A stretch of 57,070 nt of DNA from a virus (Duplodnaviria > Caudoviricetes), in the IMG/VR virus record IMGVR_UViG_3300006919_008385, positions 1 to 57,070 of that record, one strand, 5' to 3'. Position 1 is the stretch's first letter. Each line of letters begins with the position of its first letter. The notes below the pieces were generated by a model. It had not been told where the DNA came from. It worked only from the letters and a program-made list of their open reading frames with translations, and made no database searches. This document shows positions 2,000-42,708 of this stretch, piece by piece. The translations under genes were made by a program, and so were the position numbers.

Positions 2000-2027
2000 A
2001 TTATACACAGGTTATACATATTGTCAA
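2000..2027 (-). promoter_or_regulatory. sigma70-type early promoter
   Basis: TTGACA-N16-TATAAT. Confidence 0.75.
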
Positions 2028-2041
2028 GCCTTTTTAGACAG

Positions 2042-2063
2042 AAAAGGCCCAAAAAATGGGCCT
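2042..2063 (-). terminator. probable terminator hairpin
   Basis: AGGCCCA-N-TGGGCCT inverted repeat followed by short U-run. Confidence 0.5.
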
Positions 2064-2079
2064 AGTCTAAACAAAACAG

Positions 2080-2376: not shown

Positions 2377-2378
2377 GG

Positions 2379-4857: not shown

Positions 4858-5023
4858 TTTCTAGTTCTTGTTTAACAATGAATCTTATATATTCATCAGC
4901 ATTAGTTAAATCATAATCAGTAACTATTGCATATAATAAAGTTAAAAATACTAACGTCATTATTACAGACAGATATATGTTTATACCGGCTGTTATCTTG
5001 AGCCATTTGATCATATGTTTCAT
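4838..5023 (-). CDS. small membrane protein
   Basis: Likely start MKHMIKW at 5023 with AGGAG RBS; one TM segment. Confidence 0.55.
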   Translation of the reverse strand: MKHMIKWLKITAGINIYLSVIMTLVFLTLLYAIVTDYDLTNADEYIRFIVKQELENAEQSN

Positions 5024-5385
5024 AATGCTACTCCTAGTAATATTATTAAAACATAAGTCATAATATGTAAAAACTGGTCTGTACCATGAACTACCCAATA
5101 CATTTGGTCTGCTGGTCCTAGGTTTCTGCTTTTCCAAAAATTACTTTTAACATAATCTATATGATAATGAATAATACTGTCTAATGCACCAAATAAAAAT
5201 GCTGTTAGAGGATTAACATATAAAAGTAAGATAATAAAAGTAAATAAGCCATGTAATTTAGCATGAGCAACTCCACCCCAAGCACCGTAAGAGCCTTTGT
5301 CTTTGATCATCCAACTGTTTTGAGTGTAGTAATCTGCTATAAGATGTTTAAGAGCGAATAATGTAAAGAGCCCTAAGATTTCCAT
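5020..5385 (-). CDS. DUF3307-like membrane protein
   Basis: HLIADYYTQ, HAKLHG, HYHIDYVK, DQFLH histidine motifs. Confidence 0.8.
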   Translation of the reverse strand: MEILGLFTLFALKHLIADYYTQNSWMIKDKGSYGAWGGVAHAKLHGLFTFIILLLYVNPLTAFLFGALDSIIHYHIDYVKSNFWKSRNLGPADQMYWVVHGTDQFLHIMTYVLIILLGVAL

Positions 5386-5388
5386 TTG

Positions 5389-5835
5389 TTAATCCCAACT
5401 CTGGGTTTGATCTATTGTGGTAATTCTGTCTGAGCCTGTGTCTGCCACAGACTGATATGTTTTTCTATCCAGCACATACATAAATGCTTTGCCTTGATTT
5501 GTAGGTACTATTGTTCTCTGATAAAAGTTTGTTGCTGGTTGGCCTGTGTAGCCTTCCATTCTATCTAAATCAGACAAAGTTTCTGAATCAACTTCCCAAA
5601 CTTCGCCCTGTATGTAATGTTCGCCCTGTTCAAATACTCCAGGAAATGCTCCTAGATCTACCAATTCATAATCAGGATATGTTGTTTTTGCTTTGCCAAC
5701 AATAGTGGCACCTTCAAACTGATGTAATCCTCTGATATCGCCGCCACTTTTTAGTGTGCCATAGACAAAAACTTTGTATGTTTTATCATCACTAGTAAAG
5801 TATTCTGCTTTATTATTGTCTTTATCTTCAGGCAT
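5389..5835 (-). CDS. gamma-glutamylcyclotransferase (AIG2-like) family protein
   Basis: VFVYGTLK, GEVWEV, LDRMEG motifs. Confidence 0.85.
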   Translation of the reverse strand: MPEDKDNNKAEYFTSDDKTYKVFVYGTLKSGGDIRGLHQFEGATIVGKAKTTYPDYELVDLGAFPGVFEQGEHYIQGEVWEVDSETLSDLDRMEGYTGQPATNFYQRTIVPTNQGKAFMYVLDRKTYQSVADTGSDRITTIDQTQSWD

Positions 5836-6043
5836 CTAACTTTTCCTCAAGTGCTTTGATCCTGGCATTCATTGTGCTAATCAGTCTGCTTGTATCTGCA
5901 TCTAACGGTTTGGCTGTACTTGCCACGGCCATTGCCTCAAGGTCGTCAATTTTAGCATTTAAGTTACCAATTACTCTGTTTTTTTCATTAATGACTTCAA
6001 TTAGTTCTGCTTTTGTCATCTGTGTTGTACTTTTAACTGCCAT
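5828..6043 (-). CDS. small coiled-coil protein
   Basis: 71 aa heptad pattern, AGGA RBS, upstream promoter. Confidence 0.6.
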   Translation of the reverse strand: MAVKSTTQMTKAELIEVINEKNRVIGNLNAKIDDLEAMAVASTAKPLDADTSRLISTMNARIKALEEKLDA

Positions 6044-6066
6044 AATTATTCCTATAATATTCTGCT

Positions 6067-6094
6067 ATTGTAACTTAAATTTGTTTAATGTCAA
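6067..6094 (-). promoter_or_regulatory. sigma70-type early promoter
   Basis: TTGACA-N16-TACAAT. Confidence 0.65.
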
Positions 6095-6104
6095 CCTTTT
6101 TTTC

Positions 6105-6281
6105 TTAAATCTGGCCTAGTTTACTGTGAGCTTGTTGTAAAATAATTTGTTTTAATGTATCTTTACAGGAGCCACATTGTGATGTTACGCCTGTTTCATT
6201 AATAAATTTTTCTAAACTTTTACTCTTTATTTCAGATCTAAATTTACTTTCAGATATGTTTTTACAAATACATAATATCAT
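6105..6281 (-). CDS. bfd: Bfd-like [2Fe-2S] ferredoxin (58 aa; not in ORF track)
   Basis: Hand translation MILCICKNISESKFRSEIKSKSLEKFINETGVTSQCGSCKDTLKQIILQQAHSKLGQI: CxC...CGxC Bfd signature; ATGA overlap with upstream gene. Confidence 0.8.
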   Translation of the reverse strand: MILCICKNISESKFRSEIKSKSLEKFINETGVTSQCGSCKDTLKQIILQQAHSKLGQI

Positions 6282-6478
6282 GATTTACTCCCAACATGAG
6301 CCCAAAGTCTTTCATGTCCAATATACAGTAAAAACTTAATTACCATATCAACTACTACAACACCAACCGCCGCCTTCATGGGTAATCCAAATGCCAAGGC
6401 AATAACACCTGATGTCAAAGATGCTATTATTCTCCATGTAACACTTTTGGCTACGCTTCTTGATATACTTTCTGCCAT
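6278..6478 (-). CDS. DUF2061-like small membrane protein
   Basis: RSVAKSVTWRIIAS...LYIGHERLW signature. Confidence 0.8.
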   Translation of the reverse strand: MAESISRSVAKSVTWRIIASLTSGVIALAFGLPMKAAVGVVVVDMVIKFLLYIGHERLWAHVGSKS

Positions 6479-6834
6479 ATTTTTTCTATAGTTTTAAATA
6501 ATATTAGATAAAATGCTGTTGCAGTAAATGTACTAGCATCAAACTCTAATGCCGCCATAGTAAATGGATTGCCATGCGACAAGTTTGCCAATATGTGATA
6601 GCCAAACATACTCACAAAGTATGCTTTAAACATATTGAGCTTTTTACCTATAAATGTAGCAAATACTACACTAGCAAAATAACCTAATTGTGCTATATCT
6701 AGTCCTACACTAACAAGATAATACACAGTTAATGCCATTAATGGCAAACCATATTGCATTTTGCTGTTAGAACTTAATAATGGCATAAACAATGCCAATG
6801 CTAAAAAGGGTTGAAAGTTAATTATTTCTATCAT
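6451..6834 (-). CDS. membrane protein
   Basis: 127 aa, multiple TM segments, PFLALALF. Confidence 0.6.
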   Translation of the reverse strand: MIEIINFQPFLALALFMPLLSSNSKMQYGLPLMALTVYYLVSVGLDIAQLGYFASVVFATFIGKKLNMFKAYFVSMFGYHILANLSHGNPFTMAALEFDASTFTATAFYLILFKTIEKIWQKVYQEA

Positions 6835-7267
6835 TTTCTATTTCATATACTCTTTTTCTTAAACTGGTACTACTAAAACTGTGATCTCTGCCATTGTAGA
6901 CCATCTTTATATTTCTGTCTTTACAAATGCTTTTACCAGTAAAAGATTTTGATTTATATTCTTCTCCAATTATTCTTATATTTATAGGAAGTGTTAATAA
7001 CAAGTCCTCTAGGTCTCTTTCTGTAGCATACATCACAATTTCGTCAATATATTTTACTGCCGCAAGTTGTATTTGTCTCTCAACTACACTTTGTATTGGA
7101 GCATTTTTATCTGGTCTGTCTATTGTTGGATCTGTCTGCAGACCCACAATCAGATAATCACAATGTCGTTTTGCTTCTTCTAACATTGTAATGTGTCCTG
7201 CATGAAGCAGATCAAATGTACTACAGGTAAATCCTATAGTGCCACAATCTTTATAATCTAATCTCAA
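6818..7267 (-). CDS. glycerol-3-phosphate cytidylyltransferase-like protein (TagD family)
   Basis: TFDLLHAGH (HxGH) and RDHSFSSTSLR motifs; TTG start. Confidence 0.85.
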   Translation of the reverse strand: MRLDYKDCGTIGFTCSTFDLLHAGHITMLEEAKRHCDYLIVGLQTDPTIDRPDKNAPIQSVVERQIQLAAVKYIDEIVMYATERDLEDLLLTLPINIRIIGEEYKSKSFTGKSICKDRNIKMVYNGRDHSFSSTSLRKRVYEIENDRNN

Positions 7268-7350
7268 TGTTTTGGCCTATTGTTTCTGTCATTCCAGATC
7301 ATATAGGCCATCATTACTATTACAACAATTAAAACGTAATCAAAAACCAT
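7264..7350 (-). CDS. 28-aa single-TM peptide (not in ORF track)
   Basis: MVFDYVLIVVIVMMAYMIWNDRNNRPKH; fills the gap, TGA overlaps next TTG start. Confidence 0.5.
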   Translation of the reverse strand: MVFDYVLIVVIVMMAYMIWNDRNNRPKH

Positions 7351-13133: not shown

Positions 13134-13332
13134 ACTTCTTTAATATAATTTCGCTTATTTGACCTATATCCTCTCGTTCTAAATCATATAGATCGCTCAT
13201 ATTATCCACAGCACTCTTTATGCTTACCAAAGAGTCTGACTTTGCTTCTTTAATATGTTTATACACAAAGCCTCCTGGTCTAAACTCAGGTTCAGTCATT
13301 ATTACTTCTGCTAATGCTTGATAGTCTTTCAT
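13114..13332 (-). CDS. hypothetical protein
   Basis: ATGA overlap with guaC stop; plausible composition. Confidence 0.55.
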   Translation of the reverse strand: MKDYQALAEVIMTEPEFRPGGFVYKHIKEAKSDSLVSIKSAVDNMSDLYDLEREDIGQISEIILKKFTDKQQ

Positions 13333-14381
13333 GTTTCGTATTTGTCAAACACATGATTAATTACATTGTTTACTCTAACAAAGTGAGCACACTTGGGCAT
13401 ATCTTTGATGCGTGTAGCACCAATATAAGTACATGTACTTCTTACTCCACCTAATATTTGCTCTACAGTATCTTTTACAGGTCCTTTGTCATAAAGTATT
13501 ACTGTTTTACCTTCTGTTCCTCTGTATCCATCCTTTCTGGCACCATGTGTATCTAGTGCTGTTTGTGAGCTCATACCGTAAAATGTTCTTCTACCCATGT
13601 CATCTAACTCTGCTTCGCTTTCCTGATGTCCTGCTAACATGCCTCCTAGCATAACAAAATGAGCGCCACCACCTAATGCTTTGGCTACATCGCCTGGTTG
13701 GGTACAACCACCATCAGCAATTATATGTCCGCCTACACCATTGGCCGCATCTGCACATTCCACAATGGCACTAAACTGAGGAACTCCAACACCTGTCTGT
13801 GTTCTAGTAGTACATACACTACCTGGACCTATGCCAACTTTTACAATGTCTGCTCCACTAAGTATTAGTTCTTCAGTCATATTAGGTGTAACAACATTAC
13901 CTGCTATAATTATTTTGTCTGGATATTCTGATCTTATTTTTTCTACAAAGTCTAAAAACGATTGATGATACCCATTTGCTACATCGATTGTTATTGCTGG
14001 AATGTCTGGATATGCTGTCATTACTTGTTTAAGTGTAACATAATCCAAACTGTTTTCGTCCCACAAGGCTCCTGTGCCTACACATGCTGAAATATATTTT
14101 AATTGTAGTCCATTACCTACAGCAGATTTCCATTCGTCAATACTGTAATGTTTTCTGATCACAGTCATCATTTTAAATTCCTGTAATGCTTTTGCCATAC
14201 TAAATGTACCTACACCGTCCATGTTACTAGCCATTATAGGAACATAACTCAATGTTTTACCACAGTTTTTAAAATGAAATTCTCTCAATATTTGTACTTC
14301 CTTTCTAGAACTTAAAGTAGATCTTTTGGGTTGAAGTAGTACATCAGAATAATCTAAATGAATATTATAATCAATTCTCAT
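13329..14381 (-). CDS. guaC: GMP reductase
   Basis: [58 protein letters not shown]. Confidence 0.95.
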
Positions 14382-19468: not shown

Positions 19469-19792
19469 TTATAACAAACCCATTTGATATTTGGCTTCAT
19501 CAGATACATGTATATCTGGATTCCATGGTGGGTCAAATGTTAAATTTATTTTTACTAAATTAGTGTCTTTTACACTACGCACAGCAAACTCTGTTTCCAT
19601 CATTATCATCTCACCAAAAGGACAATTAGGTGCTGTGAGTGTCATCAAAACTTGTACATCATTTTCTTCATTTACATCTATATTGTATATAAGACCCAAG
19701 TCAACTATATTGATACCTATTTCAGGATCAACTACTCGTTTAAGATTACTTCTAACCTTATCCTCTATACTAATTTCTGAATTGCTTTGCAT
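19469..19792 (-). CDS. DUF59 Fe-S assembly protein (SufT/PaaD-like)
   Basis: DPEIGINIVDLGLIY, MTLTAPNCP, FDPPW. Confidence 0.9.
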   Translation of the reverse strand: MQSNSEISIEDKVRSNLKRVVDPEIGINIVDLGLIYNIDVNEENDVQVLMTLTAPNCPFGEMIMMETEFAVRSVKDTNLVKINLTFDPPWNPDIHVSDEAKYQMGLL

Positions 19793-20964
19793 AATGAATC
19801 TGATAATTTAAATATATCTTCTTTACTTGTATAGATACCAGGACTTATTCTTAAAACTCCTTTGCCACCACTTACTTTATTTACAATAGGATGAGCACAA
19901 AGTTTCCCCACTCTTACAGCAATGTTGTCTAATCCCAAAAAGGCACTAACATCACTTGGGTGATATCCAGTACAGGTAAATGTATAAACATATCTGCCAT
20001 TTTGTCTGTAATCTTTGTATATTAAATCCAGTCCTTTAATGTTAAAAATATCTGAATCACTCATAGCAAAATCTAAACCAGTAAAGTGTTCTTTAAAGTT
20101 TTCATATTTTAAATAATTCATCCATTCGGCCGCTCTGCCTAATCCTAATATACCTGCTAAGTTAGGTGTGCCAACTTCGTGTTTTGTAGGACCATCGTAA
20201 AACTCTACATTCCCTTTTAAATCATAATGTACTACGGAGCCTCCTCCTAATCTTACAGAACGATGTCTTTCAAAAGGCAGTCTACTATATAAAACTCCTA
20301 CACCTGTTGGACCATACATTTTATGACCACTAAAAACAGCATAGTCATATGTATAACTATCGAACTCATGTGTACCTATTGTTTGACAAGCATCTATAAC
20401 TACCTTTATTCCTTGGTTGTGTGCCATTTTACATAACTTTTTGCAACTTGATGGTATGCCAGTTACATTACTATGACTGTGAATACTTAATAGAGCATAA
20501 GGATATTTTTCAAACACTTTATTTGCTTCATCTAAATTTATTTTACCTGAGTCTGTAATAGGAAGTACAACCAATCTACCGTTTTCTGTTGTTCTATTTT
20601 GTGCTATCCAAGGCAATATATTTGCTGTATGTTCTGCTTCGGTAATTATTACTACAGGCATGTCTTTATACCAGTCTGCTACTATGTTAAGACCTTCTGT
20701 TGCACCTGATGTAAACATAATTTGATCAGGCTTTGCTTTAATTAGTTTGGCAAATTCTTCTCTAGCAGTTTCTATATCAGCACTTACCTTTTGGCTAATA
20801 GGAAAATCTCCTCTGTTTGCATTACATCTTTCTTCTTCATAATACTGGTTCATACGATCTAAAACACTTTGATGCGTTTGCGTACTGGCGGCACTATCCA
20901 AATAAACTAATTCTGGATTGTTTACTAGTGTTGGAAACTCTTCTTTTATGTTGTTATAAAGCAT
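19765..20964 (-). CDS. sufS: cysteine desulfurase SufS
   Basis: YLDSAASTQ, EHTANILPW, SGHKMYGPTG (PLP Lys), RVGKLCAHP. Confidence 0.9.
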   Translation of the reverse strand: MLYNNIKEEFPTLVNNPELVYLDSAASTQTHQSVLDRMNQYYEEERCNANRGDFPISQKVSADIETAREEFAKLIKAKPDQIMFTSGATEGLNIVADWYKDMPVVIITEAEHTANILPWIAQNRTTENGRLVVLPITDSGKINLDEANKVFEKYPYALLSIHSHSNVTGIPSSCKKLCKMAHNQGIKVVIDACQTIGTHEFDSYTYDYAVFSGHKMYGPTGVGVLYSRLPFERHRSVRLGGGSVVHYDLKGNVEFYDGPTKHEVGTPNLAGILGLGRAAEWMNYLKYENFKEHFTGLDFAMSDSDIFNIKGLDLIYKDYRQNGRYVYTFTCTGYHPSDVSAFLGLDNIAVRVGKLCAHPIVNKVSGGKGVLRISPGIYTSKEDIFKLSDSLCKAIQKLV

Positions 20965-22160
20965 CTTTTTAATAATTCCTCAGACTCAAAGTCGTTTATG
21001 CCTCTACTCTCCAAGTAGTATAGCATGTCTTTATCCAAATTACTTATAGTACATCCATGAGTACATATAACTTCTTTGGTGTTAATGTCTAGTTGAGGCT
21101 CAGTAATCATTGTATTCTTATTGCTTAACATTAAATTTTTATTCTCTAAATGTGCCTCTGTGTTTTCTGCTTCTTTGTTTATGTTAATTTTACCAATAAA
21201 ACTTGAATGTGAATTATCATCTCCTATAGTTCTTACGTCAACAATACTGCTACTGTTAGGACTCAAATGATTTACATTAACAGTCATATTATTAGTATAA
21301 TTTTCAAATAAATTAAAATTTCCTATTACATTTGTATCACAATCGTTATAAATGTCAAACTCCATATTATCCTGATTATGTTTACTGCCTTCTCCAAATA
21401 CTTCCACTGTGACTTTACTGCCAGGAAACTGTATAAATTTACTATCTATAACATTACATGCTCTGTCTTTATTGTTGTAATCATGTTTTCTGTTAAGGTT
21501 CAACTTAACATTGTCTCTTACAATATATGTTATGTTATATAATTTTACACCATCTTTATTTTCAAAAAATTCATCTAATGTCAATTTTGTATTTTTACCT
21601 ATATCTATTATAGCAAACACACAATTAACATCTTTGTCTTTATAACTATCAGCATAACAAATACTTTGAGCAAAATTTTTATTGGCATAATATTTTATGC
21701 CTACTGGGCCTGTACTATTAATTACAGCATAATCTGACAGTCTGTTATTTGGTTTAAAATATGGCTCATATAATTTTATTTTGCTGTACTTGGAATACAA
21801 ATCAAATATTTTAAAATAATCATATTGATAAGGCCTATACATACTGGTACCATTGTGTACATCAGATATAAATCCATCATCTATGACTACATCAAATTGT
21901 TCTGTATAATTAGATAACCAGTCTTCCTTTTTATTTGAGCTAGAGTTAGCAATTAAATCAACATCTCTAAGAGTTTTTAGATTCATGTTTTTATAAAAAT
22001 TATTTTTTAAAGGAGATCCTTTTTGTACTAAACTGTTAAAAAATCCGTCTACTAAGTTAGGTAACACATTATTTGCTACAGTATTAGATACCATATTATT
22101 TCGTAAACCAAAGTTCACTAGGTTATGCAACTCATCTATATTGTATGTAACTTTAGACAT
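20946..22160 (-). CDS. sufD: Fe-S assembly protein SufD (divergent N-terminus)
   Basis: PQLDINTKEVICTHGCTIS...LYYLESRGI; likely start MSKV at 22160. Confidence 0.85.
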   Translation of the reverse strand: MSKVTYNIDELHNLVNFGLRNNMVSNTVANNVLPNLVDGFFNSLVQKGSPLKNNFYKNMNLKTLRDVDLIANSSSNKKEDWLSNYTEQFDVVIDDGFISDVHNGTSMYRPYQYDYFKIFDLYSKYSKIKLYEPYFKPNNRLSDYAVINSTGPVGIKYYANKNFAQSICYADSYKDKDVNCVFAIIDIGKNTKLTLDEFFENKDGVKLYNITYIVRDNVKLNLNRKHDYNNKDRACNVIDSKFIQFPGSKVTVEVFGEGSKHNQDNMEFDIYNDCDTNVIGNFNLFENYTNNMTVNVNHLSPNSSSIVDVRTIGDDNSHSSFIGKININKEAENTEAHLENKNLMLSNKNTMITEPQLDINTKEVICTHGCTISNLDKDMLYYLESRGINDFESEELLKRCFITT

Positions 22161-22869
22161 ATTCTTCAAAGCCATTAACCAACACATCATTTGCTAGTGT
22201 AATGTCACCTCTAACAACTTTATCCTTACCTAAAATTGTTACTGTATCTACATTAAGGGAATTTATTAATTGTGAATAGTGACTTATAATTAAAACTATT
22301 TTGTCTGGTTTTTGTGAGAATACATTTAAAAACTTTATTAAATGTTTTATAGCATCTACATCTAATCCACTGTCTGGCTCATCTAATATTACACATTTAG
22401 GATCTAACAATTCCATTTGTATTAACTCATTCTTTTTCTTCTCGCCGCCACTTGCTTCTACATTCAATTGCTTTTTATCCCAATTATCAGGCAGTTTAAA
22501 TGTTTCTGCTAATTGTTTAAACTCATTTAAATTTTCTGTTAGCCTCTTTGCATCATCTCTTCTAGATAGTACCTGATGTAATAATTGAAAGTTACTTAAA
22601 CCTTCAATGGGTGTAGGTTGCTGAAAGCCCAAAAACAATCCTGCCTGAGCTCTTTCAAATGTAGGCATAGCCAACAAGTCTTTACCATAAAACTCTACAG
22701 CACCTTCAGTAATGTAATTGGGATTTCCCATAAGAGCATGAGCAAATGTACTTTTGCCTACTCCATTAGGACCCATTATGATATGAACACCAGGACCAAA
22801 CTCCAGATGTAAATCATTTAAAACTATTTGATCTTCAACTTTTACTGAAAACTCTTGTGTAACTATCAT
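22153..22869 (-). CDS. sufC: Fe-S assembly ATPase SufC
   Basis: GPNGVGKST, SGGEKKKNE, LDEPDSGLDVDA. Confidence 0.92.
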   Translation of the reverse strand: MIVTQEFSVKVEDQIVLNDLHLEFGPGVHIIMGPNGVGKSTFAHALMGNPNYITEGAVEFYGKDLLAMPTFERAQAGLFLGFQQPTPIEGLSNFQLLHQVLSRRDDAKRLTENLNEFKQLAETFKLPDNWDKKQLNVEASGGEKKKNELIQMELLDPKCVILDEPDSGLDVDAIKHLIKFLNVFSQKPDKIVLIISHYSQLINSLNVDTVTILGKDKVVRGDITLANDVLVNGFEEYV

Positions 22870-24314
22870 TATCCTACTGCTCCTTCTAGTGTAACACTCA
22901 GCAATTTATTTGCCTCTGCGGCAAATTCCAAAGGAAGTTTTTGAAAAACATCCTTACAAAATCCATTTACAACACAATTAACTGCGTTCTCTTCGTCTAA
23001 ACCTCTGCTTTGTAAATAATACAAAGCCTCTTCTGACAGTTTACCTGTACTGGCTTCATGCTCTACTATACTGCTGTTATTATACTGCATAACCACAGGT
23101 AATGTCAATGCCTTACTGTTATCTAACATTAAACTATCACATTGTGTATAGTTTCTACTGTTATGAGCATTTTTATTGACCCTTACCATTCCTCTGTATG
23201 TGTTACTACTGTCTCCAAAACTTATGCCTTTGGATATAATGGTGCTCTTGGTATTTTTACCAACATGCAACATCTTTGTTCCTGTGTCTGCCATTTGTTT
23301 GCCTTTGGTTACAGCAACACTATAAAACTCACCAACACTATTATCGCCTCGTAATATACAACTTGGATATTTCCAAGTAACGGCACTACCTGTTTCAACC
23401 TGTGTCCAACTAATCTTACTGCTTTCACCTTTACATAATCCTCTCTTAGTTACAAAATTTAATACGCCACCAACACCATTTTCATCTCCTGGGTACCAGT
23501 TTTGTACTGTACTATATTTAATCTCTGCCCTGTCATGTGCTACCAGCTCTACTACAGCCGCGTGTAGTGTGTTCTCATCATATGCTGGAGCAGTACAACC
23601 TTCTAAGTAACTGACATAACTGTCCGCATCTGCTATAATCAGTGTTCTTTCAAACTGTCCTGTATTACGAGCATTGATGCGGAAGTATGTGTTTAATTCC
23701 ATTGGGCATTTAACTCCCTTAGGAATATAACAAAAGGTGCCGTCCGTAAAGACGGCACTATTTAGGCAAGCGAAGTAATTATCCTTGGCTGGGATAATAC
23801 TACCTAAATACTCTTTTACGAGTTCGGAATGTTCTTGTATGGCTTCACTTATACTGCAAAATATAATGCCATGTTTCTTTAATTCTTCTTGGAATGTTGT
23901 GGCAATACTAACACTATCAAATACTGCGTCAATGGCCACTGTGGGTATTTTGTTTTCTGCTTCTATACCAAGTAGAGAATCTCTTTCGTGTAGAGGGACA
24001 CCTAACTTTTCAAATGTATCTAAGATCTCTTGTGGAATGTCTTCTTTGTTTCTAAACTTGGGTGCTGAATAATAACTTAATGCTTGGTAATCTATAGGTG
24101 CATAGTTTACATGAGCCCATGTAGGTTCTTTTATTTTTTGTAGATGTTCAAATGCTTTTAGTCTAAACTCAGTTACCCATTCAGGTTCGTTTTTTATTGC
24201 ACTAAGTTTTCTTACTACCTCTTCTGTAAGTCCAGGTTCAAAGTCCTCAGAGTCTACGACTGTTTCGAATCCAGCAGTATATTGATTGGATGTTATTTTA
24301 CTATAGTCAGTCAA
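22869..24314 (-). CDS. sufB: Fe-S assembly scaffold SufB
   Basis: [48 protein letters not shown]. Confidence 0.97.
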
Positions 24315-24606
24315 TTTTCTCTACCATAATAGTTAATGGGTGTCCATTGTTCCTACTTATAGCAACGGCTTCTGCTTTCTTTTGCTCAGCAAGTTCAAAG
24401 TTATATGTACCTGCTATGCCTTTTCCTTTTTCATGGATTAACATTGTAATATCCTTTGCTTGTTCTAAGTTTCTATTAAAAACTTCTATCAGCAACTGAA
24501 TTACAAAATCCATAGGAGTAAAGTCGTCGTTAAGTAGCACCACATTATATCTATTAGGATAGGTGACGTCAGTCTGTGTAATTGTATCAGATTGTGTTTG
24601 TGCCAT
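24307..24606 (-). CDS. clpS: N-end-rule adaptor ClpS
   Basis: [30 protein letters not shown]. Confidence 0.93.
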
Positions 24607-24812
24607 TATTTTTGATGTTTAGGTAGTTTAGCCTCCACAAACATTTCATGTTTGCGTTTAACAGGATTATATTTTTTCATTTTAAGTTTTCTATTTTCCT
24701 GTATAAGAGTCTTAGTCTTAACAGCAGTATAATGATAGGTATGACTGTCTCTGGTCTCACCTTCTGGTATCATGTATACTATTGTTTTCTTTTTATTACT
24801 TTTGCTTGCCAT
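24606..24812 (-). CDS. rpmG: 50S ribosomal protein L33 (Zn-free type)
   Basis: HYTAVK...KLKMKKYNPVKRKHEMFVEAK, matching L33 C-terminal signature. Confidence 0.75.
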   Translation of the reverse strand: MASKSNKKKTIVYMIPEGETRDSHTYHYTAVKTKTLIQENRKLKMKKYNPVKRKHEMFVEAKLPKHQK

Positions 24813-24821
24813 TTTATAAGT

Positions 24822-24845
24822 GGAGAGGACTTATTTGTCCTCTCC
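24822..24845 (-). terminator. hairpin between hsp20 and rpmG
   Basis: GGAGAGGAC-N6-GTCCTCTCC; late motif TATAAATA at 24850-24857 just upstream. Confidence 0.5.
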
Positions 24846-24864
24846 CACATATTTATAAACCAGA

Positions 24865-25317
24865 TTAGCCAATTTTAATCTTTTGTGGTTTAAGTGCGTC
24901 AGGAACATTTCTGAACAGTTCTACTTTTAGTAAACCGTCCTCTAGTTTTGCACTTTTAACCTCCACATACTCAGCAAGTTTAAAACTTCTTACAAAGTCT
25001 CTTTCTGCAATACCTTTATGTAAAAACTCAACGTCGTCCATTGCTCCGGACTCGTCTGCTTTAATGGTACCAGTAATAAGTAAGTTACCGTCTTCTAACT
25101 CAATATCTATTTCGGACTTTTTAAATCCTGCAATAGCCAATGTAATTGAATACAGATCATCACCGTCTTTACTGATGTTGTATGGTGGATAGCCTTGTGA
25201 ATTTGTTGCAGAATTCATCTGAGTTTCGAACTCATTAAAAAGTCTGTCAAATCCGACTGTGGCTCTATATAGTGGGTTTAGTGTATCAGAAGTGATACGA
25301 AATTGTTTGCTTACCAT
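24865..25317 (-). CDS. small heat-shock protein Hsp20 (IbpA-like)
   Basis: VGFDRLF, YPPYNI, LAIAGF, FLHKGIAERDF, LEDGLL; start MVSK at 25317 with AGGAG RBS. Confidence 0.95.
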   Translation of the reverse strand: MVSKQFRITSDTLNPLYRATVGFDRLFNEFETQMNSATNSQGYPPYNISKDGDDLYSITLAIAGFKKSEIDIELEDGNLLITGTIKADESGAMDDVEFLHKGIAERDFVRSFKLAEYVEVKSAKLEDGLLKVELFRNVPDALKPQKIKIG

Positions 25318-25325
25318 GATATTAT

Positions 25326-25342
25326 CTCCTTTAAAAAGCAAG
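25326..25342 (-). promoter_or_regulatory. ROSE-like RNA thermometer hairpin
   Basis: CUUGCU pairs with SD AGGAG leaving a bulged G; U(U/C)GCU is the ROSE hallmark in sHsp 5'UTRs. Confidence 0.65.
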
Positions 25343-25385
25343 TTAATTTATTTTTACTAGTTCTTTTTAAACCCTATTGGCGAAT

Positions 25386-25765
25386 AAAAAGATCGCATTG
25401 TGAGGTCGTTTCCGTTTGTATGTGTCTGTATCTCCTCACGACACTTGGCAAACTTCTTGGTTTCCTTTGATGTTGCCATCTTAGGTCCTTTGTTGGTTGC
25501 CCCAAATAAAAAACATGTCAACTGTTAAACCCGTGCTCTTTTGAAGACTATTTCCATATAGCAATAGTCCGAGCACTTTTGAAGATTTAACCTTCTATGC
25601 CTTTCTAATCTTGGAACTAATGTTCCTAATATTACCTTTCGTTTGGCTATTGTCCCTAGTAGGTCACCTTCACTTACGATCTGGTTTCCCTTAGTTCTTT
25701 TTACCTGTCCAGGTAATAATGCATATCTAACTTTGCAGTAGACTCCATTCTCTTACGATCCTTTT
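25386..25765 (-). ncRNA. putative large structured non-coding RNA (~380 nt), family unrecognised
   Basis: No ORF >=60 aa; 12-bp closing helix, GNRA-capped stems, long symmetric hairpin, pseudoknot; upstream promoters. Confidence 0.65.
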
Positions 25766-25792
25766 GCCCTTGCATTATTTTTTATGCAATTT

Positions 25793-25842
25793 TATTTATC
25801 TTTTCACTATACTTATATAGTGTTTTTTGGATAAATTTCAAG
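25793..25842 (-). promoter_or_regulatory. tandem promoters upstream of ncRNA/hsp20 (CTTGAAA-N16-TATATA, RpoH-like; late GATAAATA)
   Basis: CTTGAAA at 25836-25842, CACTATAT -10-like region, GATAAATA at 25793-25800. Confidence 0.5.
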
Positions 25843-25861
25843 TATTTTTTGCAAAAAAGTG

Positions 25862-26290
25862 CTATTTTCCTCTAAAATCCTCATTCAAAGTAGTTTTTAT
25901 AGCATGACAAACTTTACATAGTGTTTTATGATTACTTGGATCATTATTATAATGATTACCATCTATGTGATCTACATCTAATAATGTTCTAACAAGTCTG
26001 TTTACTACAATAGGATCTTTTACACTTTTAACTGTAGGGTGCTCTAGTGGATCAAACCCACATTCCTCACAACAATCACCTCTGCTAAAACTATGCTCTT
26101 TAGTTCCTTTTGCAAGTCCACCATATTCAACTAGATCCTTTTGATGCTGTCTGCAATACTTGTCATGTCCAGGACCTTCAAATAGTGTTAGTATTTTATC
26201 ACAACCTTCAACACTACATCTGCTTTTCCTAGCCTTAAGTAATAGTTTGCCTGTTTTAGGCTTATCTATATTTGCATCTCTGAAGCTCAT
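25862..26290 (-). CDS. HNH endonuclease with Zn fingers
   Basis: CEECG...DVDHIDGNHYNNDPSN...LCKVCH; N-terminal CxxxxC...CxxH. Confidence 0.85.
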   Translation of the reverse strand: MSFRDANIDKPKTGKLLLKARKSRCSVEGCDKILTLFEGPGHDKYCRQHQKDLVEYGGLAKGTKEHSFSRGDCCEECGFDPLEHPTVKSVKDPIVVNRLVRTLLDVDHIDGNHYNNDPSNHKTLCKVCHAIKTTLNEDFRGK

Positions 26291-27492
26291 GATAATTCCT
26301 CTTCAGTAAATCTGTAGTTCATATTGCCACCAAATTTTGGCACAGCATAACTAAATCCTGCTAGAGTAACTGCTTGGCATAACCAGGTAGGTGCTACAAG
26401 TGTTTGGTTACATCTTTGGGATATTGCATCTGAATTTCCTTGTCTGTTCCTCCAAGATGTATAAGCATCACTAACCTTTTTGTGCTTACTGTTTTTACTT
26501 TGCTGTCTGTGTTTCCAAGTATTACCAGTAACTTTATCTAAAACATCAACAAACTGTTGTATATAATCTTCGTTGACATCTATACCTTGCTCTTCACATG
26601 CTCTAAATATATGAGACATATTGTCTATTTCCAAAGGTTCTACAGGTAAGTCTGGATTGGACAAACTGTGATACTTAAACACTTTTGCTAAAGTTTCAAC
26701 ACTAAATTTATCTAACCTTTTAGGAAATATTTCTGAAGGACGTGATATAGCACCTGCCATATTCTCATCACCAAACTTTGAATGTGTAAAGAACATATCA
26801 TTTTCTTCTAAAGCAGTCTGTATAGCCTCCATTCTTTGGTGCCAAGGATTTTCACTACCATTATGCCTTACAGCATATACATATTGATCATAGTGATCAA
26901 TCTTATCTAGTTCTTTACTCATGCTACCGTCATTAAATCCTATAAATCTGTCTCTAATTTTAGCAACATCTTTACCTGGATAGATTGCAGTAGGCATCTT
27001 AAATTTTTGTGCGTCTTTCATTGAGAGACCAAATCCATATATAGCAACTATAAGTAATAGTAATGCTGTATGCTGACCGTCCCATACAATTAATTGCTCT
27101 TCGCCCTCAACATTATCTTTATATGTTCTAATAGGGTTTACAAAGAAAGGATCAAATTTACCAAATAGTTCACACAACCATTGTGCATCTGGTTCTCTTT
27201 GTATAATTGCATTAATAACCAAAGTATCAGGAGCAACTGTTCTGCCTTCGTCTCCCAATCCTACCATGTCTTTCATCATGGCTTTAAATGTTTTATATTG
27301 AGGATACCTGATTTTAAACTCTTCACCATATGCCTCAAATACTTCTGCAATATCAGGATCTTCATCTATAATTGCTTGGTACCTTTCCCATAAGGTTAAG
27401 TAGGTATCTTTATCTGATTGGAACCTGGAGTTCCTTTTGGTGGCGTGACTTACGCCTATTGTGCCTATTGGCATTGTAGTTTTCATACTCAT
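26287..27492 (-). CDS. ParB/DGQH(R/T)-motif domain protein
   Basis: IQREPD...VWDGQHT...RFIGFN, ParB/Srx-like fold motifs. Confidence 0.6.
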   Translation of the reverse strand: MSMKTTMPIGTIGVSHATKRNSRFQSDKDTYLTLWERYQAIIDEDPDIAEVFEAYGEEFKIRYPQYKTFKAMMKDMVGLGDEGRTVAPDTLVINAIIQREPDAQWLCELFGKFDPFFVNPIRTYKDNVEGEEQLIVWDGQHTALLLLIVAIYGFGLSMKDAQKFKMPTAIYPGKDVAKIRDRFIGFNDGSMSKELDKIDHYDQYVYAVRHNGSENPWHQRMEAIQTALEENDMFFTHSKFGDENMAGAISRPSEIFPKRLDKFSVETLAKVFKYHSLSNPDLPVEPLEIDNMSHIFRACEEQGIDVNEDYIQQFVDVLDKVTGNTWKHRQQSKNSKHKKVSDAYTSWRNRQGNSDAISQRCNQTLVAPTWLCQAVTLAGFSYAVPKFGGNMNYRFTEEELS

Positions 27493-30938: not shown

Positions 30939-31726
30939 TATTCTCCGTCGTAGTATTCTAAACGTTCTATGTCTTCTTCGTTTGTTTCTTCACCATATTG
31001 TATCTCTACAATGTGACATGGTTCTTCACTACTGTTTACAATTTGATGCCAATCACCTACTCTTATATGTATAACTTCATCTGTTTTTAAATTGATTACA
31101 TCATGTTCATCTGGTTTGTCTGTATCTCTGCCATGTTTTACAACACATTCACCTTTACTTACAAACCAAATTTCACTACGTTTAAAGTGTCTCTGATAAC
31201 TAATGCCTTTGCCTGGCTCTATTACAAGCTCTTTGACTTTAACAACACCATCTTCAAACAAGTTACTGAACTCTCCCCATACTCTGCGTTCAGTTGGATA
31301 CTTCCATTCTTTTAGTATCCAACTACTGCTATTGGCTTTATTTTCTCCACCAACACCAAATTGAAATGTATATCCATCTACTTCCATTTCCGGTATGTTG
31401 TCTTTTCCTCTATCACCTCCGTTACAAAAGACATACTCTATCCCTTCACTGGATTTGTCAAACATTTCTTTTATTTGTCTTAATCCTTGATTTACACTAT
31501 TGTCACTATCGTCTACACCATAAACATAATCCACCATGCTCATGCGTTCTAATATAGTTGCTCTTTCCTCAAAAGGCATAAATGGTCTGCCTTTCTTTCT
31601 GGTAAGCCATTCATCACTATTAAGTAGTACCACAAGTTTGTCGCCATATGCGGCGGCTGATTCTAATAAGTTGATGTGACCAGAATGTAGAGGATCGAAA
31701 CCCCCACTGACAACAGAAATTTTCAT
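30938..31726 (-). CDS. cytidylyltransferase / mannose-6-P-isomerase-like cupin fusion
   Basis: SGGFDPLHSGH, NGGDR, KANSSS; cupin RVWG...SYQRHFKRSEIW...EIQYG...EEDIER. Confidence 0.85.
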   Translation of the reverse strand: MKISVVSGGFDPLHSGHINLLESAAAYGDKLVVLLNSDEWLTRKKGRPFMPFEERATILERMSMVDYVYGVDDSDNSVNQGLRQIKEMFDKSSEGIEYVFCNGGDRGKDNIPEMEVDGYTFQFGVGGENKANSSSWILKEWKYPTERRVWGEFSNLFEDGVVKVKELVIEPGKGISYQRHFKRSEIWFVSKGECVVKHGRDTDKPDEHDVINLKTDEVIHIRVGDWHQIVNSSEEPCHIVEIQYGEETNEEDIERLEYYDGE

Positions 31727-32109
31727 TATCTATTTCCTCTGAGTTTTTGAATTTTTTCTCTGCCCATGTATTCTTTTCTTCTCTGACGTTTGCCCTTAAG
31801 ATGTTTTTGGCCAGTAACAGGAGTTGGCATCCATTCGCCTCGCATAATCATAATGTCTAATTCTTTATTACGACGTTTGATTGCTTGATCTTTTTTGCGT
31901 TTTCTTTTAGCAGATGGTTTTTCATAATACTCTCTTTTAGAAAGTTCTTTCTGGAAGTCCATCTTCTCTAATACTTTTTTAAGTTTTCTTATTGCAAGAT
32001 TTACGTTGCCGTTAACGACTGTAATTGAACGACCTTTATCTACTATTTTAGTATTTTCGGGTCGTTTAACCTTCCAGTTTTTATTAAAATTTTGTTTGTG
32101 TTTATTCAT
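31726..32109 (-). CDS. rpsU: 30S ribosomal protein S21 with terminal extensions
   Basis: VVNGNVNLAIRKLKK...REYYEKPSAKRKRKK. Confidence 0.85.
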   Translation of the reverse strand: MNKHKQNFNKNWKVKRPENTKIVDKGRSITVVNGNVNLAIRKLKKVLEKMDFQKELSKREYYEKPSAKRKRKKDQAIKRRNKELDIMIMRGEWMPTPVTGQKHLKGKRQRRKEYMGREKIQKLRGNR

Positions 32110-33370
32110 CTATTTGTCTGTATACCTTATAATTAGCATCTAATTCCTCTCTGCCATCCAAAACCAGGACAGGATACTTATCTTTACTAGATGGATAATG
32201 ATTAAATTTTACTGTTTTTACGCCCATTTCTTTTAAATCTTTTATTCTAAACATAATATTTACAATACTATTCTCAACAATACTCTTTAATGACCTTGCT
32301 CCTGTTGATGTTTTAACAGCCATATCAGCAACATTGTTGTAATATTCATCAGCAAATTCTAATGCTATATCATCCACCTCCATTAATGAGGATACCTGAA
32401 GTATAACACTATTCTTGACGTTTGTCAAGATATTTTTATATTGATCTTTATTAAGATTTTCCATTATACCAATTACAGGAAGTCTACCTATTAACTCTGG
32501 TATAAGACCATAATCTACTATATCTTGTTCAGTAATTTTTCCTAAAAGTGCTCTTCTATCATCAGTACCAACAATTTTACTTCCAAATCCTATTGTGCTG
32601 GCCTTTTTTAAACGTTTTTCTATAATTTTTTCTATGCCTACAAAAGCACCACCCACAATAAATAATACATTGGATGTATCAAAATCCACGAAATCGTCTG
32701 ATATTTTTTTACCTGAATTTACTCTTACTTTTGCTGATGTACCTTCTATAAGTCTTAACAATGCCTGTTGTACACCTTCGCCTGAAACATCTCTGGTGCC
32801 TGTATTTGATTCACTACGCCTAGCCTTTTTGTCTATCTCATCTATAAACACTATACCTCTTTGTGCTAATTCTACATCAAAGTTTGCCAGATTAACTAGA
32901 CGTCCCAGAACACTCTCTACATCTTCTCCCACATAACCTGCTTCAGTGAGTGTGGTGGCGTCAGCAATAGCAAATGGTACACCTAATTTTTCTGCAAGTG
33001 TTTTTACTAATAATGTTTTACCTGTTCCTGTAGAACCTAATAATAATATATTAGATTTTTCTATTTTAATCTCTTTAATTTTATTACTAATTCTTTTATA
33101 ATGATTATAAGAACTAACACTCAATACCTCTTTGACAGAGTCTTGCCCAATTACATATTCATCCAGGTAATCTTTTATTTCTTGAGGTTTAGGAATATCT
33201 TCAAATTCAAAGTCTAATAAATCTAATTGAGTTTCATCTTTTACAATGTCATAGCTCAGTGTTATACATTCATTACAAATGTAAGCATCAGGTCCTGCTA
33301 TAAGTTTTTCAACTTCTTCTCTTTTCTTCCCACAAAAATTACAATTTAGGTGTTTGTTATCATCCTTCAT
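32102..33370 (-). CDS. clpX: ATP-dependent Clp protease ATPase ClpX
   Basis: C4 Zn finger CNFC...CNEC, GSTGTGKT, ADATTLTEAGYVGEDVE, RDVSGEGVQQALL, IGF loop. Confidence 0.96.
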   Translation of the reverse strand: MKDDNKHLNCNFCGKKREEVEKLIAGPDAYICNECITLSYDIVKDETQLDLLDFEFEDIPKPQEIKDYLDEYVIGQDSVKEVLSVSSYNHYKRISNKIKEIKIEKSNILLLGSTGTGKTLLVKTLAEKLGVPFAIADATTLTEAGYVGEDVESVLGRLVNLANFDVELAQRGIVFIDEIDKKARRSESNTGTRDVSGEGVQQALLRLIEGTSAKVRVNSGKKISDDFVDFDTSNVLFIVGGAFVGIEKIIEKRLKKASTIGFGSKIVGTDDRRALLGKITEQDIVDYGLIPELIGRLPVIGIMENLNKDQYKNILTNVKNSVILQVSSLMEVDDIALEFADEYYNNVADMAVKTSTGARSLKSIVENSIVNIMFRIKDLKEMGVKTVKFNHYPSSKDKYPVLVLDGREELDANYKVYRQIDE

Positions 33371-41670: not shown

Positions 41671-42708
41671 CTATTTACCAGTTGCTATTGCTTGTTTGTA
41701 TAATTGTTGGCTTGCCAAGTTTTTAGCCTTGGCTTCACATTGTATGTCAAAGTCATTCCAAAAGCTCAAGGCCCATTCATTTGCAATAGCATTAGGGTAG
41801 AAGTCTGAATGAGCCCTCAGTTTTTGTTTTTTAGCACCACTTTCTATTAGTGTATTAATGCTGTGAAGTTTATCATGTTCATATCCATCTGGTATCCATT
41901 CATCACGACTGTAACTGTAATGTAACGTTGGCCTTACACCTCTCCAACTATCTATGATTCGCTTCACACGATCATCATCTGCTTGTATGTATTCTTCGTC
42001 ACGTATCCAGTGATGGTGTATATCAAGAACAAGTGCCACATGTTTTTCCAATTTGAGACTTTCATCTAGTCCCCAACACATCTCATCATTCTCGATAGCA
42101 ATAGTGTTACGAGCTTCAGGAGAAAGTTTAGGCAATATATCTATAATACCCTGATACCCTTGCTTACCAGATATATGTACATTACATTTAAAGTCCATAA
42201 ACTCTTTACCAAAACCCATCCAACGTATCATGTTAGCATGATACTCAAACTCATCTATACTTCGTTCAACAACATCTGGTTTATCACTTGCTAATACACA
42301 AAATTGACCTGGATGAAAACTTACACGAACATCTTTTGCTCTGGCTAGTTCGCCTACTTTACTAAATCCTTTCTCTAGTTCTTTAATTACTGATTTGTCT
42401 TCAAATACATGTCTCCAAGTAGGCTCCGTTGCCATGGGTATTTGGTTGCTACCCAATCTAACCATACGCAAATTTTCAGGTAGTGTACTCACATACTCTA
42501 CGAGGTTGTAGGCACTTTGCATATTGTGTTCAACACAATCTAGTAATTTCTGTTCTGCTTTATCAGGATTATTATTACACCACAGCCTTGTAGTAGACTT
42601 TTCAGTATACATCTGTTGTTTTTCTTTGAGAATTTTAGGTTTTTGTGTCTGATCTTCTTCCAGATACTTACAGCAAAAGCCTATTCGATTTATACTTTGA
42701 TCAAACAT
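41671..42708 (-). CDS. uvsE: UV damage endonuclease UvsE
   Basis: RIGFCC, RVSFHPGQF, IENDE, LDIHHH, RAHSD, EAKAK. Confidence 0.92.
   Translation of the reverse strand: MFDQSINRIGFCCKYLEEDQTQKPKILKEKQQMYTEKSTTRLWCNNNPDKAEQKLLDCVEHNMQSAYNLVEYVSTLPENLRMVRLGSNQIPMATEPTWRHVFEDKSVIKELEKGFSKVGELARAKDVRVSFHPGQFCVLASDKPDVVERSIDEFEYHANMIRWMGFGKEFMDFKCNVHISGKQGYQGIIDILPKLSPEARNTIAIENDEMCWGLDESLKLEKHVALVLDIHHHWIRDEEYIQADDDRVKRIIDSWRGVRPTLHYSYSRDEWIPDGYEHDKLHSINTLIESGAKKQKLRAHSDFYPNAIANEWALSFWNDFDIQCEAKAKNLASQQLYKQAIATGK

Follow-up and report, generated by a model that had tools for sequence, protein, structure and literature searches.

What occupies the longest gene-free stretch of an uncultured phage genome fragment, and what might it do for the heat-shock gene that follows it? 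The fragment, which we call the window, is the whole of IMG/VR record IMGVR_UViG_3300006919_008385 (Caudoviricetes), a viral contig of 57,070 nucleotides (nt) with a G+C content of ~0.32 to 0.38 and a completeness of ~35% by CheckV. Positions 25342-25861 (520 nt) form its longest stretch without open reading frames (ORFs) of at least 60 amino acids (aa), in keeping with the original prediction, made from the sequence alone, that the largest ORF-poor gap of this genome holds an unrecognized, highly structured noncoding RNA of ~380 nt (25386-25765, minus strand) at the head of an operon that begins with hsp20, the gene for a small heat-shock protein (sHSP). We find that this region encodes a member of a previously uncatalogued family of large, modular, structured RNAs in an uncultured marine phage clade. 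More than 100 phage contigs keep the RNA, with changes in its stems that compensate each other, and it is absent from Rfam, which bears out the prediction of a noncoding RNA, possibly of a new class, with homologues.

The family was assembled through its neighbor and through its own sequence. A search with the Hsp20 protein returned 27 viral loci, in 15 of which single-sequence nhmmer located the element ahead of hsp20. A scan with a three-block pattern, in which UGGYAACA, AYACRYACWAWC, and UUCGCC were fixed, yielded 20 viral contigs, at least 120 metagenome contigs, and one bacterial metagenome-assembled genome (MAG). All counts of loci, versions, and aligned sequences that derive from this pattern refer to the matches listed; among these, there are 158 places with 106 distinct 420-nt versions (4 of them chance matches), which fall into 81 clusters at 90% identity. 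Because the search pattern fixed the letters of the three blocks, their invariance is partly by construction. A covariance model of a 110-nt core (R1; 110 positions and 24 pairs), to which the window scores 112 bits, recovers the core from 20 of these 27 loci, with no match in L009-L011 and L025-L028. R1 likewise found no match in four pattern matches without hsp20 (L056, L137, L141, and L169), which are therefore chance pattern matches, and we rejected the pattern match in the MAG, a member of the Polyangiales, on the same grounds. Three cultured relatives, whose full genomes were scanned (Pelagibacter phages Mosig and HTVC008M and Methylophilales phage Melnitz-3), gave no match to the model, nor did two large viral records whose hsp20 is without the RNA, and a blastn search of the region against 50,697 phage records returned no match. 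A weak R1 match elsewhere in the window (31932-32037; 18.7 bits, E 0.49) lies inside the bS21 ORF and was dismissed as noise.

Covariation among these homologues, which the original prediction had proposed as a check, supports the finding. The alignment of the 3' part comprises 100 distinct sequences over window positions 25274-25518 and a 42-pair structure, in which 86.6% of the pairs can form, against 69.7% with shuffled partners (0 of 500 shuffles reach the observed pairing) and 32 to 43% with partners slid along the sequence; 31 of the 42 pairs change on both sides. Within the 3' core, the stems vary with compensation, and the junctions and the loop of helix Pe are nearly invariant. The long-range helix Pb, for example, also occurs as GGUAU/AUACC, GCUAC/GUAGC, GUCCA/UGGAC, GAUUGC/GCAAUC, and CCCUA/UAGGG, and Pe occurs as GUGAGG/CCUCAC, UAGAGG/CCUCUA, UAGAGCG/CGCUCUA, and UUAGCAGG/CCUGCUAA. 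Hairpin Pd has UUGGCAAGAG in two viral contigs (L174 and L175) where its cap is elsewhere AUGGYAACA throughout, so that this cap is less invariant than the first pattern implied. Two further relatives, L083 and L127, carry core mosaics, one joining the Pb of one lineage to the Pe of the other and one the reverse, which points to recombination within the RNA between phage lineages. Candidate pairs from mutual information (e.g., relative positions -62/-31) were not used, being confounded by the two main lineages, and a UGG/CCA hairpin at the 5' strand of Pb was dropped for its conflict with the covarying Pb. A pairing of CAAGU in the core with ACUUG of the anti-Shine-Dalgarno block ahead of hsp20 was also dropped, as the L007-type lineage is without CAAGU at that place.

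Upstream of the core, the RNA is built of modules (Table 1). The duplicated GAUCGUAAG unit that had been noticed in the window is real and forms the tip of two homologous hairpin modules. Module 1 covaries in its own right: over 42 distinct sequences and 13 pairs, 89.2% can pair, against 82.9% with shuffled partners (0 of 500 shuffles) and 27 to 45% with slid ones, and 7 of the 13 pairs change on both sides. Module 2 repeats the motif order of module 1, and, by eye, its outer pairs read CUA/UAG, GUA/UAC, or CA/UG among relatives. Between the two lies P3, the predicted hairpin UUACCU-GGAC-AGGUAA; the minimum free energy (MFE) fold of the window contains it, but the hairpin that relatives have in its place differs, by eye, in sequence and length. 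The ~90-nt irregular arm of the original prediction is a twin-bulge arm that exists and covaries: across 70 loci with 48 distinct sequences, its 20 pairs reach 92.2%, against 83.7% with shuffled partners (0 of 500 shuffles) and 18 to 45% with slid ones, with 10 of the 20 changing on both sides. Its two 6-nt UCAAAA bulges flank the 6-bp helix B in a pseudo-two-fold arrangement, and helix B itself occurs in three mutually compensating forms (GUGCUC/GAGCAC, GAGCAC/GUGCUC, and GAGCUC/GAGCUC). These parts come and go. Simple motif matching over the 106 listed versions (the 4 chance ones included) found both copies of the arm motif in 51, one copy in 22, and none in 33, and the module 1 motif in about half; measured from the upstream same-strand ORF, the core ends after ~234 to 623 nt across relatives. 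At the 5' end, a hairpin UUGCAU..AUGCAA (25770-25789, minus strand) shares its UGCA letters with the outer helix of module 1. All three segments of this UGCA region change together in some relatives (e.g., L115 and L003), which suggests that two mutually exclusive helices can form there.

The outer limits of the molecule and several of its small hairpins needed revision. In the original prediction, a 12-bp helix joined the two ends into a closed molecule of ~380 nt. This helix is indeed part of the window MFE fold; across relatives (74 loci with 31 distinct strand combinations), however, its strands pair at 75.0%, no better than the 75.1% of shuffled partners, with 303 of 500 shuffles reaching the observed pairing, and all 12 pairs form only in the window's own combination (1 of 31). 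Both strands have other covarying partners, the 5' strand in module 1 and the 3' strand in hairpin T, of which it is the 5' half. We therefore set the terminally closed molecule aside. The predicted interval is too narrow, with conserved structure spanning ~25775 to 25283; the RNA itself measures ~380 to 420 nt in the window, from roughly 25396 to 25775-25810 on the minus strand, and promoter and leader stand ~230 to 620 nt apart in relatives. Four of the small stems proposed from the window alone fail in relatives: the GGCAA of GG-GCAA-CC is the 5' strand of the long-range Pb, which pairs with UUGCC; the GGG of GG-GAAA-CC pairs with CCU in module 2, in a by-eye reading that draws on analogy with module 1; CG-GAAA-CG suffers a one-sided change to CA-GAAA-CG in many relatives; and GGAAC-AUUA-GUUCC belongs to a variable insert that relatives lack or have with other sequence. 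The hairpin GAUG-GCAA-CAUC is real, as the stem below its cap covaries, though UGGYAACA was part of the search pattern.

Thermodynamic folding agrees that the minus strand is highly structured. Positions 25386-25765 fold at -96.1 kcal/mol, against -73.8 ± 4.3 kcal/mol for 100 dinucleotide shuffles (z -5.17, with 0 of 100 shuffles as good), and the plus strand of the same interval reaches a z of only -2.1. No known family accounts for this structure. With gathering thresholds, Rfam 15 recognizes three tRNAs in the whole window and none of them in the RNA region; relaxing the threshold to E values of up to 10 over 25250-25950 adds two meaningless low-score matches only, and E values of up to 5 over seven homologous loci give nothing relevant, so the cmscan comparison proposed with the original prediction matched no known family in the window or in those loci. 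As had been supposed, the RNA does not match a transfer-messenger RNA (tmRNA), an RNase P RNA, or a group I intron (ARAGORN reports the three tRNAs and no tmRNA, and Rfam matches none of these families), and the group II intron, 6S RNA, and Csr models of Rfam likewise have no match in the region. A description of the RNA was not found in the literature that we located. A catalogue of 8,495 candidate structured RNAs of 29 to 151 nt from IMG/VR does not mention hsp20 in its main text, and its supplementary tables may contain fragments of the element (PMC10690425).

Could the region nonetheless be nonfunctional, as a decayed or small coding region or as an AT-rich spacer that folds by chance? A is frequent on the strand (146 of 380 letters, with 12 GGA, as first counted), and the window RNA contains a 41-aa ORF (25374-25499) with a plausible ribosome-binding site. 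This ORF runs off-frame after ~12 codons in L008, L012, and L020 and is absent in L002, L003, L006, L007, and L013, so we rejected it as a gene; the prediction that the RNA has no conserved coding signal holds. Antisense ORFs of 81 to 198 aa in some loci have no counterpart in the window. Core nucleotides are better kept than the Hsp20 protein: loci with no more than ~65% identity in Hsp20 retain ~88 to 91% nucleotide identity over nt 270-366 of the element, and compensatory changes occur in 48 of the 75 pairs tested, beside a folding z of -5.2. We consider a nonfunctional origin scarcely credible.

The 3' end of the RNA leads into an equally conserved start region of hsp20. In carriers, the spacing from Pe to hairpin T is fixed at 3 to 5 nt. 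Hairpin T has at least 10 compensatory variants; a mini-helix or pseudoknot of GCGA with UCGC close to it was rejected, UCGC staying unchanged when GCGA becomes ACGA, GCUA, or ACUA, a comparison limited by the fact that the search pattern fixed UUCGCC there. An A/U-rich linker follows, and then AACUUGCU. All 100 distinct sequences have its AACUUGC unchanged, and at least 90% have the U after it. This block lies 7 to 8 nt ahead of the GGAG of the Shine-Dalgarno (SD) sequence in 89 of 100 sequences, and GGAG lies 5 to 8 nt ahead of the AUG. A U(U/C)GCU motif facing the SD in a 3'-proximal hairpin is the hallmark of ROSE-like sHSP thermometers (PMC3669281). By inspection, UUGCU and AGGAG can form a pairing that includes one G-G mismatch; both strands are invariant, and there is thus no covariation for this pairing. 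A second partner lies within the ORF: AAGCAA is complementary to UUGCUU, and their pairing, which would loop out the ribosome-binding site and the AUG, is the MFE structure in the window and L029 and the centroid in L019. Every one of the 100 sequences has AAGCA or AGCAA among the first 30 nt of its ORF, with the codon register being one of three (78, 13, and 9 sequences), which argues for selection on RNA rather than on peptide. Hairpin Ph, farther into the ORF, switches one pair between U-A (61) and A-U (39) and another among A-U (57), U-A (28), and G-C (15), and the encoded residues change together (Ile..Asp, Phe..Glu, and Val..Asp). In L026, which is without the big RNA, a hairpin of unrelated sequence stands at the position of Ph.

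How closely is the RNA tied to hsp20? An hsp20 start lies within 250 nt of it in 131 of the 135 oriented loci with at least 600 nt of downstream sequence, and the 4 exceptions are the chance matches. Because the first pattern included part of hairpin T, we repeated the linkage test with patterns of the Pe loop only, and 25 of 25 viral contigs had hsp20 ~90 to 110 nt downstream. The upstream side is variable by comparison. A promoter-like site, as the original prediction had claimed, precedes the RNA; it is unique in the window, none of 100 shuffles contains a match, and a simple promoter scan did not call it. Among relatives, 101 distinct upstream regions were compared, of which 35 have the form (C/G)TTGAww-N13-CAyTATAw; in the remaining regions, the upstream ORF extends to a conserved GATAAATAAC. 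The window site resembles both the sigma-70 and the sigma-32 consensus (the latter as quoted in PMC3669281), and it is a candidate promoter; the sigma-32 reading also suits some relatives, whereas others have TTGATT-N17/18-TATAAT. As general phage promoter motifs, ATAAATAWC (5 occurrences against 3.75 expected) and WAACTTGCT (3 against 2.5) are not enriched in the window and were discarded. Two hsp20 loci, L010 and L026, whose Hsp20 is 66% and 50% identical to that of the window, are without the core and keep the T-type hairpin, AACUUGCU, and the SD straight after the upstream gene or a promoter-like AT-rich stretch. As relatives without the RNA keep this short leader, the big RNA is an insertion between the promoter and an older leader.

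A riboswitch would offer one account of such an arrangement, with the 110-nt core as the aptamer of a small-molecule sensor and the downstream leader as the expression platform for a stress and iron-sulfur (Fe-S) operon. Like riboswitch leaders, the element has a conserved core and variable, covarying stems and stands directly upstream of the translation initiation region, and its compensated stems, near-invariant junctions, and Pe loop are conserved in a manner typical of aptamers. The operon, however, suggests no ligand; no mutually exclusive pairing was found to join core and platform; the platform exists independently in relatives, where hairpin T and the anti-SD are unchanged without the core; and part of the invariance was imposed by the search patterns (UGGYAACA, AYACRYACWAWC, and UUCGCC). 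We think a riboswitch improbable.

Several aquatic RNA libraries contain RNA of this family at very high depth. When words were sampled from 24800-26300, at least a fifth of them occurred in each of 20 runs on record as RNA (17 studies); four of these runs (X1, X2, X3, and X7) were compared as contigs, and the other 16 (0.20 to 0.30 of the words) were not used as evidence. Contigs cover the RNA in all four runs compared. Word depth over 25414-25817 is 4668 to 7340 in X1, 101 to 213 in X2, 82 to 493 in X3, and 903 to 3209 in X7 (with one empty bin each in the X3 and X7 ranges), against 67, ~4, 4 to 49, and 2 to 24, respectively, over hsp20, and these are depths per contig, which cannot rank genes. 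Contigs of X1 that match the window letter for letter at 25484-25567 and 25538-25736 reach word depths of 4222 and 5498. At 25482-25483, by comparison, all of the X1 depth (5065) carries letters other than those of the window, and at 25379-25480, abundant variants that differ from the window were not aligned in any run. X2, X3, and X7 have no contigs upstream of 25818, and such holes prove nothing. Contigs bridging the core and hsp20 (24065-25479 in X1, 25258-25481 in X3, and 24961-25396 in X7) fit the predicted cotranscription with hsp20-rpmG-clpS-suf, with DNA carry-over possible. In X2, the sequence of one contig (25453-25764, depth 213) gives way to that of a sequencing adapter at 25764, in an internal loop of module 1 and a little downstream of the hairpin that shares UGCA with this module; the junction could mark either a defined RNA 5' end or a place where reverse transcription stops strongly. 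A leader far deeper than its message in contigs from RNA libraries is a further trait that the element shares with riboswitch leaders.

We judge the chances to be evenly balanced that the RNA acts in cis, as a regulatory leader of the hsp20 operon. The library contigs also bear on a second reading, by which the element is a stand-alone, stable RNA that acts in trans and merely shares the hsp20 promoter, being cut out of the message or outliving it. Such an RNA could be a protein sponge or scaffold, with the arm and the GUAA hairpins as binding sites, or it could assemble with itself in the manner of ROOL and GOLLD. Contig depths of hundreds to thousands over the RNA against 4 to 67 over hsp20 would suit it, within the limits on depth given above, as would the hint of a defined end or reverse-transcription stop at the X2 adapter junction, the gain and loss of hairpin modules, the recombination of core modules between lineages (L083 and L127), and the relatives that do without the RNA. 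The RNA is never found away from hsp20, however (25 of 25 and 131 of 135 loci, the rest being chance matches); its junction to hairpin T is fixed at 3 to 5 nt; no terminator separates it from hsp20, and library contigs bridge both; the adapter-marked end falls in the internal loop of module 1 and not at the foot of a terminal helix; and no Rfam model of a large RNA matches. A trans-acting RNA is the chief alternative, to which we give somewhat less than an even chance, and the cis and trans readings are not mutually exclusive.

If the RNA is a leader, the protein that it precedes offers a candidate mode of control. In E. coli, IbpA binds the structured 5' untranslated region (UTR) of its own message and thereby represses translation, for which oligomers are required; R93 is irreplaceable, R97 and K98 must be cationic, and Y34 must be aromatic, and IbpB is reported to be without this self-repression activity (PMC10474464). 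The phage Hsp20 is 43% identical to Salmonella IbpA. Equivalents of R93, R97, and Y34 are present in the Hsp20 of the window and six relatives, with S or T at the position of K98, while Salmonella IbpB is without equivalents of R93, R97, and K98 and has Phe at the Y34 position. The residues that are kept make an IbpA-type feedback on the phage leader plausible.

In such a scheme, the RNA would be made as the 5' part of an hsp20-L33-clpS-sufBCDS transcript. The working part would be the 110-nt 3' core, a three-way arrangement of Pb, Pc, and Pd together with Pe and its conserved loop, and the 5' hairpin modules and the twin-bulge arm would be accessories gained and lost between relatives. The output would be the initiation of hsp20 translation, wrapped in hairpin T, the UUGCU anti-SD, AAGCAA, and the hairpin of codons 7 to 12. 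Oligomers of the phage sHSP would load onto the multihairpin leader and hold translation down, and aggregating proteins would titrate the sHSP off it. This mechanism, in which the RNA is an extended loading platform for the sHSP by analogy with IbpA, is the one that we prefer, although we hold such binding to be less likely than not.

Several observations weigh against a cis-acting leader under sHSP feedback. The linkage to hsp20 could stem simply from a shared promoter, and modular, repeated hairpins at high depth fit a trans-acting stable RNA at least as well. The per-contig depths lend no ranking of RNA over message, and the differing letters in X1 imply that the abundant RNA there comes from close relatives, so that the depths do not give its ratio to its own hsp20. 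Relatives without the RNA have a complete hsp20 leader, and the RNA is thus not needed for basic hsp20 control. We found no alternative pairing by which the core could switch the leader, and a terminator scan found no minus-strand terminator in the region. The nearest-neighbor model draws the UUGCU-SD pairing in one of six folds (L007) and more often prefers UUGCUU/AAGCAA, and none of the ROSE models of Rfam match 25250-25950 at E values of up to 10 or the seven homologous loci at E values of up to 5. R93, finally, is widespread in alpha- and gammaproteobacterial IbpAs, and its presence is therefore permissive, not diagnostic.

A bolder possibility is that the RNA is a phage decoy for IbpA-type sHSPs, made in great excess over the message. 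Its hairpins would soak up host IbpA and buffer the phage sHSP. E. coli IbpA also represses translation of the heat-shock sigma factor (PMC10410725), and sequestration of IbpA would thus activate the chaperone regulon of the host, on which phage assembly depends; it might also feed back on the promoter of the RNA, the window site resembling the sigma-32 consensus CTTGAA-N13-CNCCATAT. We regard a decoy as unlikely. If true, it would be the first case of a chaperone sponged up by an RNA, as well as a new form of viral takeover of host proteostasis.

Known systems resemble the phage element in part. Among the closest are the ROSE elements and the ibpA 5' UTR (as in E. coli and Pseudomonas): the phage element, too, lies in the 5' leader of an IbpA-type sHSP gene, and its 3'-proximal part has U(U/C)GCU a few nt before the SD (100 of 100 sequences). 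As in the two-hairpin ROSE-like elements of Pseudomonas, the part with the motif is preceded by a hairpin, here hairpin T (PMC3669281), and as with the E. coli ibpA leader, the sHSP keeps the R93 and Y34 equivalents (PMC10474464). Known ROSE elements, in contrast, have ~60 to 120 nt and two to four simple hairpins, to which the phage adds 250 to 500 nt of ornate RNA with a core; no ROSE model of Rfam matches, and the phage anti-SD has a conserved partner within the ORF, AAGCAA, as well as the hairpin of codons 7 to 12.

Among ornate RNAs, a likeness to ROOL, GOLLD, and OLE had been proposed, and it stands for size and ornateness, but no model of those families matches. With them and with raiA and HEARO, the phage RNA shares a length of several hundred nt, many helices, several GNRA tetraloops, and strong covariation. 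ROOL and GOLLD are phage-borne, as is the hsp20 RNA of these phages. The phage RNA differs from this group in that it matches none of the five in sequence or structure, does not lie beside tRNAs, is always fused to the leader of one gene, and is largely a string of local hairpins with a 110-nt core. CsrB/RsmZ sponges and 6S RNA are similar in their repeated hairpin modules, high contig depth, and rod-like arm with paired bulges; the conserved loops of the phage RNA, however, are GUAA/GYAA and UCAAAA, not GGA, and no 6S or Csr model matches. The GUAA/GYAA loops speak against the suggestion that the RNA is a CsrB-like sponge. The further suggestion that the RNA is a partner of the HNH protein encoded next to it loses ground with an HNH homologue upstream in only 18 of 124 loci.

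The HNH-like ORF adjoins the promoter region of the RNA on its upstream side, where neighbors vary (a homologue of a 401-aa protein is found in 14 of 124 loci), and it looks like a mobile insertion at a variable junction. Downstream, the operon assignments rest on Pfam matches to ClpS, SufBD, ABC_tran, and Aminotran_5 (a class V aminotransferase, sufS-like). The coordinates of all features are collected in Table 1.

Table 1. Features of the hsp20 RNA locus in the window, listed along the minus strand
Feature	Coordinates	Strand	Description
Gene order		minus	HNH-like ORF, 520-nt ORF-free gap, hsp20, L33-like, clpS, sufB, sufC, sufD, sufS-like
HNH endonuclease-like ORF	25862-26290	minus	PHROG matches only, E ~1e-6; no Pfam match
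Promoter-like site	25813-25841	minus	TTGAAA, 16 nt, TATATA; alternatively CTTGAAA-N13-CACTATAT
Module 1	25734-25774	minus	Extended hairpin: UGCA / GGGC / internal loops / UC-GUAA-GA tip; includes AAAAGGAUCGUA
P3	25701-25716	minus	Variable hairpin; UUACCU-GGAC-AGGUAA in the window
Module 2	25656-25694	minus	CUA / GGG ... GAUC-GUAA-G ... CCU / UAG; homologue of module 1
Variable insert	25592-25655	minus	Absent or unalignable in many relatives
Twin-bulge arm	25524-25591	minus	Helix A, UCAAAA bulge, helix B, apical helix C, second UCAAAA on the opposite strand
3' core	25396-25506	minus	Present in all carriers; helices Pb, Pc, Pd, and Pe; from covariation and R1
Pb	25497-25501 with 25447-25451	minus	Long-range helix; GGCAA/UUGCC in the window
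Pc	within 3' core	minus	2-bp helix
Pd	25464-25485	minus	Hairpin with UGGYAACA cap
Pe	25400-25439	minus	Helix enclosing a conserved 23- to 28-nt loop
Hairpin T	25360-25394	minus	GAUCUUUUUA / UAAAAAGAAC around UUCGCC-AAUA-GGG; 90.5% paired; 8 of 13 pairs change on both sides
AACUUGCU	25337-25344	minus	Includes ROSE-type U(U/C)GCU anti-SD motif
SD GGAG	25326-25329	minus	Invariant alignment columns
hsp20 start codon	25315-25317	minus	Invariant alignment columns
AAGCAA	25307-25312	minus	Complementary to UUGCUU; pairing would loop out ribosome-binding site and AUG
Hairpin Ph	25283-25298	minus	GUAUC-ACUUCU-GAUAC, hsp20 codons 7 to 12; 5 bp; 100% paired in 100 sequences
hsp20	24865-25317	minus	IbpA-like sHSP; Pfam HSP20, 61 bits; first gene of the operon
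L33-like ORF	24606-24812	minus	20.5 bits, under the Pfam cutoff

The rest of the window offers some context. Its minus strand carries a proteostasis and Fe-S gene set at 19765-24606 and 32102-33370, with ClpS, SufB, SufC, SufD, a SufS-like class V aminotransferase, and ClpX. Directly downstream of the ClpX homologue (32102-33370) is a 127-aa ORF (31726-32109, minus strand) with a ribosomal protein S21 domain (Pfam, 47.5 bits, residues 29 to 80) and N- and C-terminal extensions; with the L33-like ORF, the phage may thus encode two ribosomal proteins. Other phage genes include a member of the GMP-reductase/IMPDH family (13329-14381) and a UvdE endonuclease (41671-42708), and the three tRNA genes (Val-TAC, Asp-GTC, and Glu-TTC; 56836-57067, minus strand) form a cluster that reaches the end of the contig. 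A 1110-aa protein of the window, distantly similar to proteins of large Caulobacter and Brevundimonas phages, is the sole hint of host or group.

What, then, would this RNA mean for the phages that carry it? If confirmed, it is a new class of large structured RNA that only widespread marine phages have. Rather than being free-standing, it adjoins a thermometer-type leader, which links ornate RNAs with the posttranscriptional control of sHSPs, two fields that have not yet met. To our knowledge, ROOL, GOLLD, and OLE have for years lacked a concrete, testable partner; for the phage RNA, the adjacent sHSP is a concrete candidate. More than 90 distinct sequences with rich covariation make the family a good target for structure determination, and hairpin Ph, which forces paired amino acid changes, is a clean case of RNA structure constraining the sequence of a protein.

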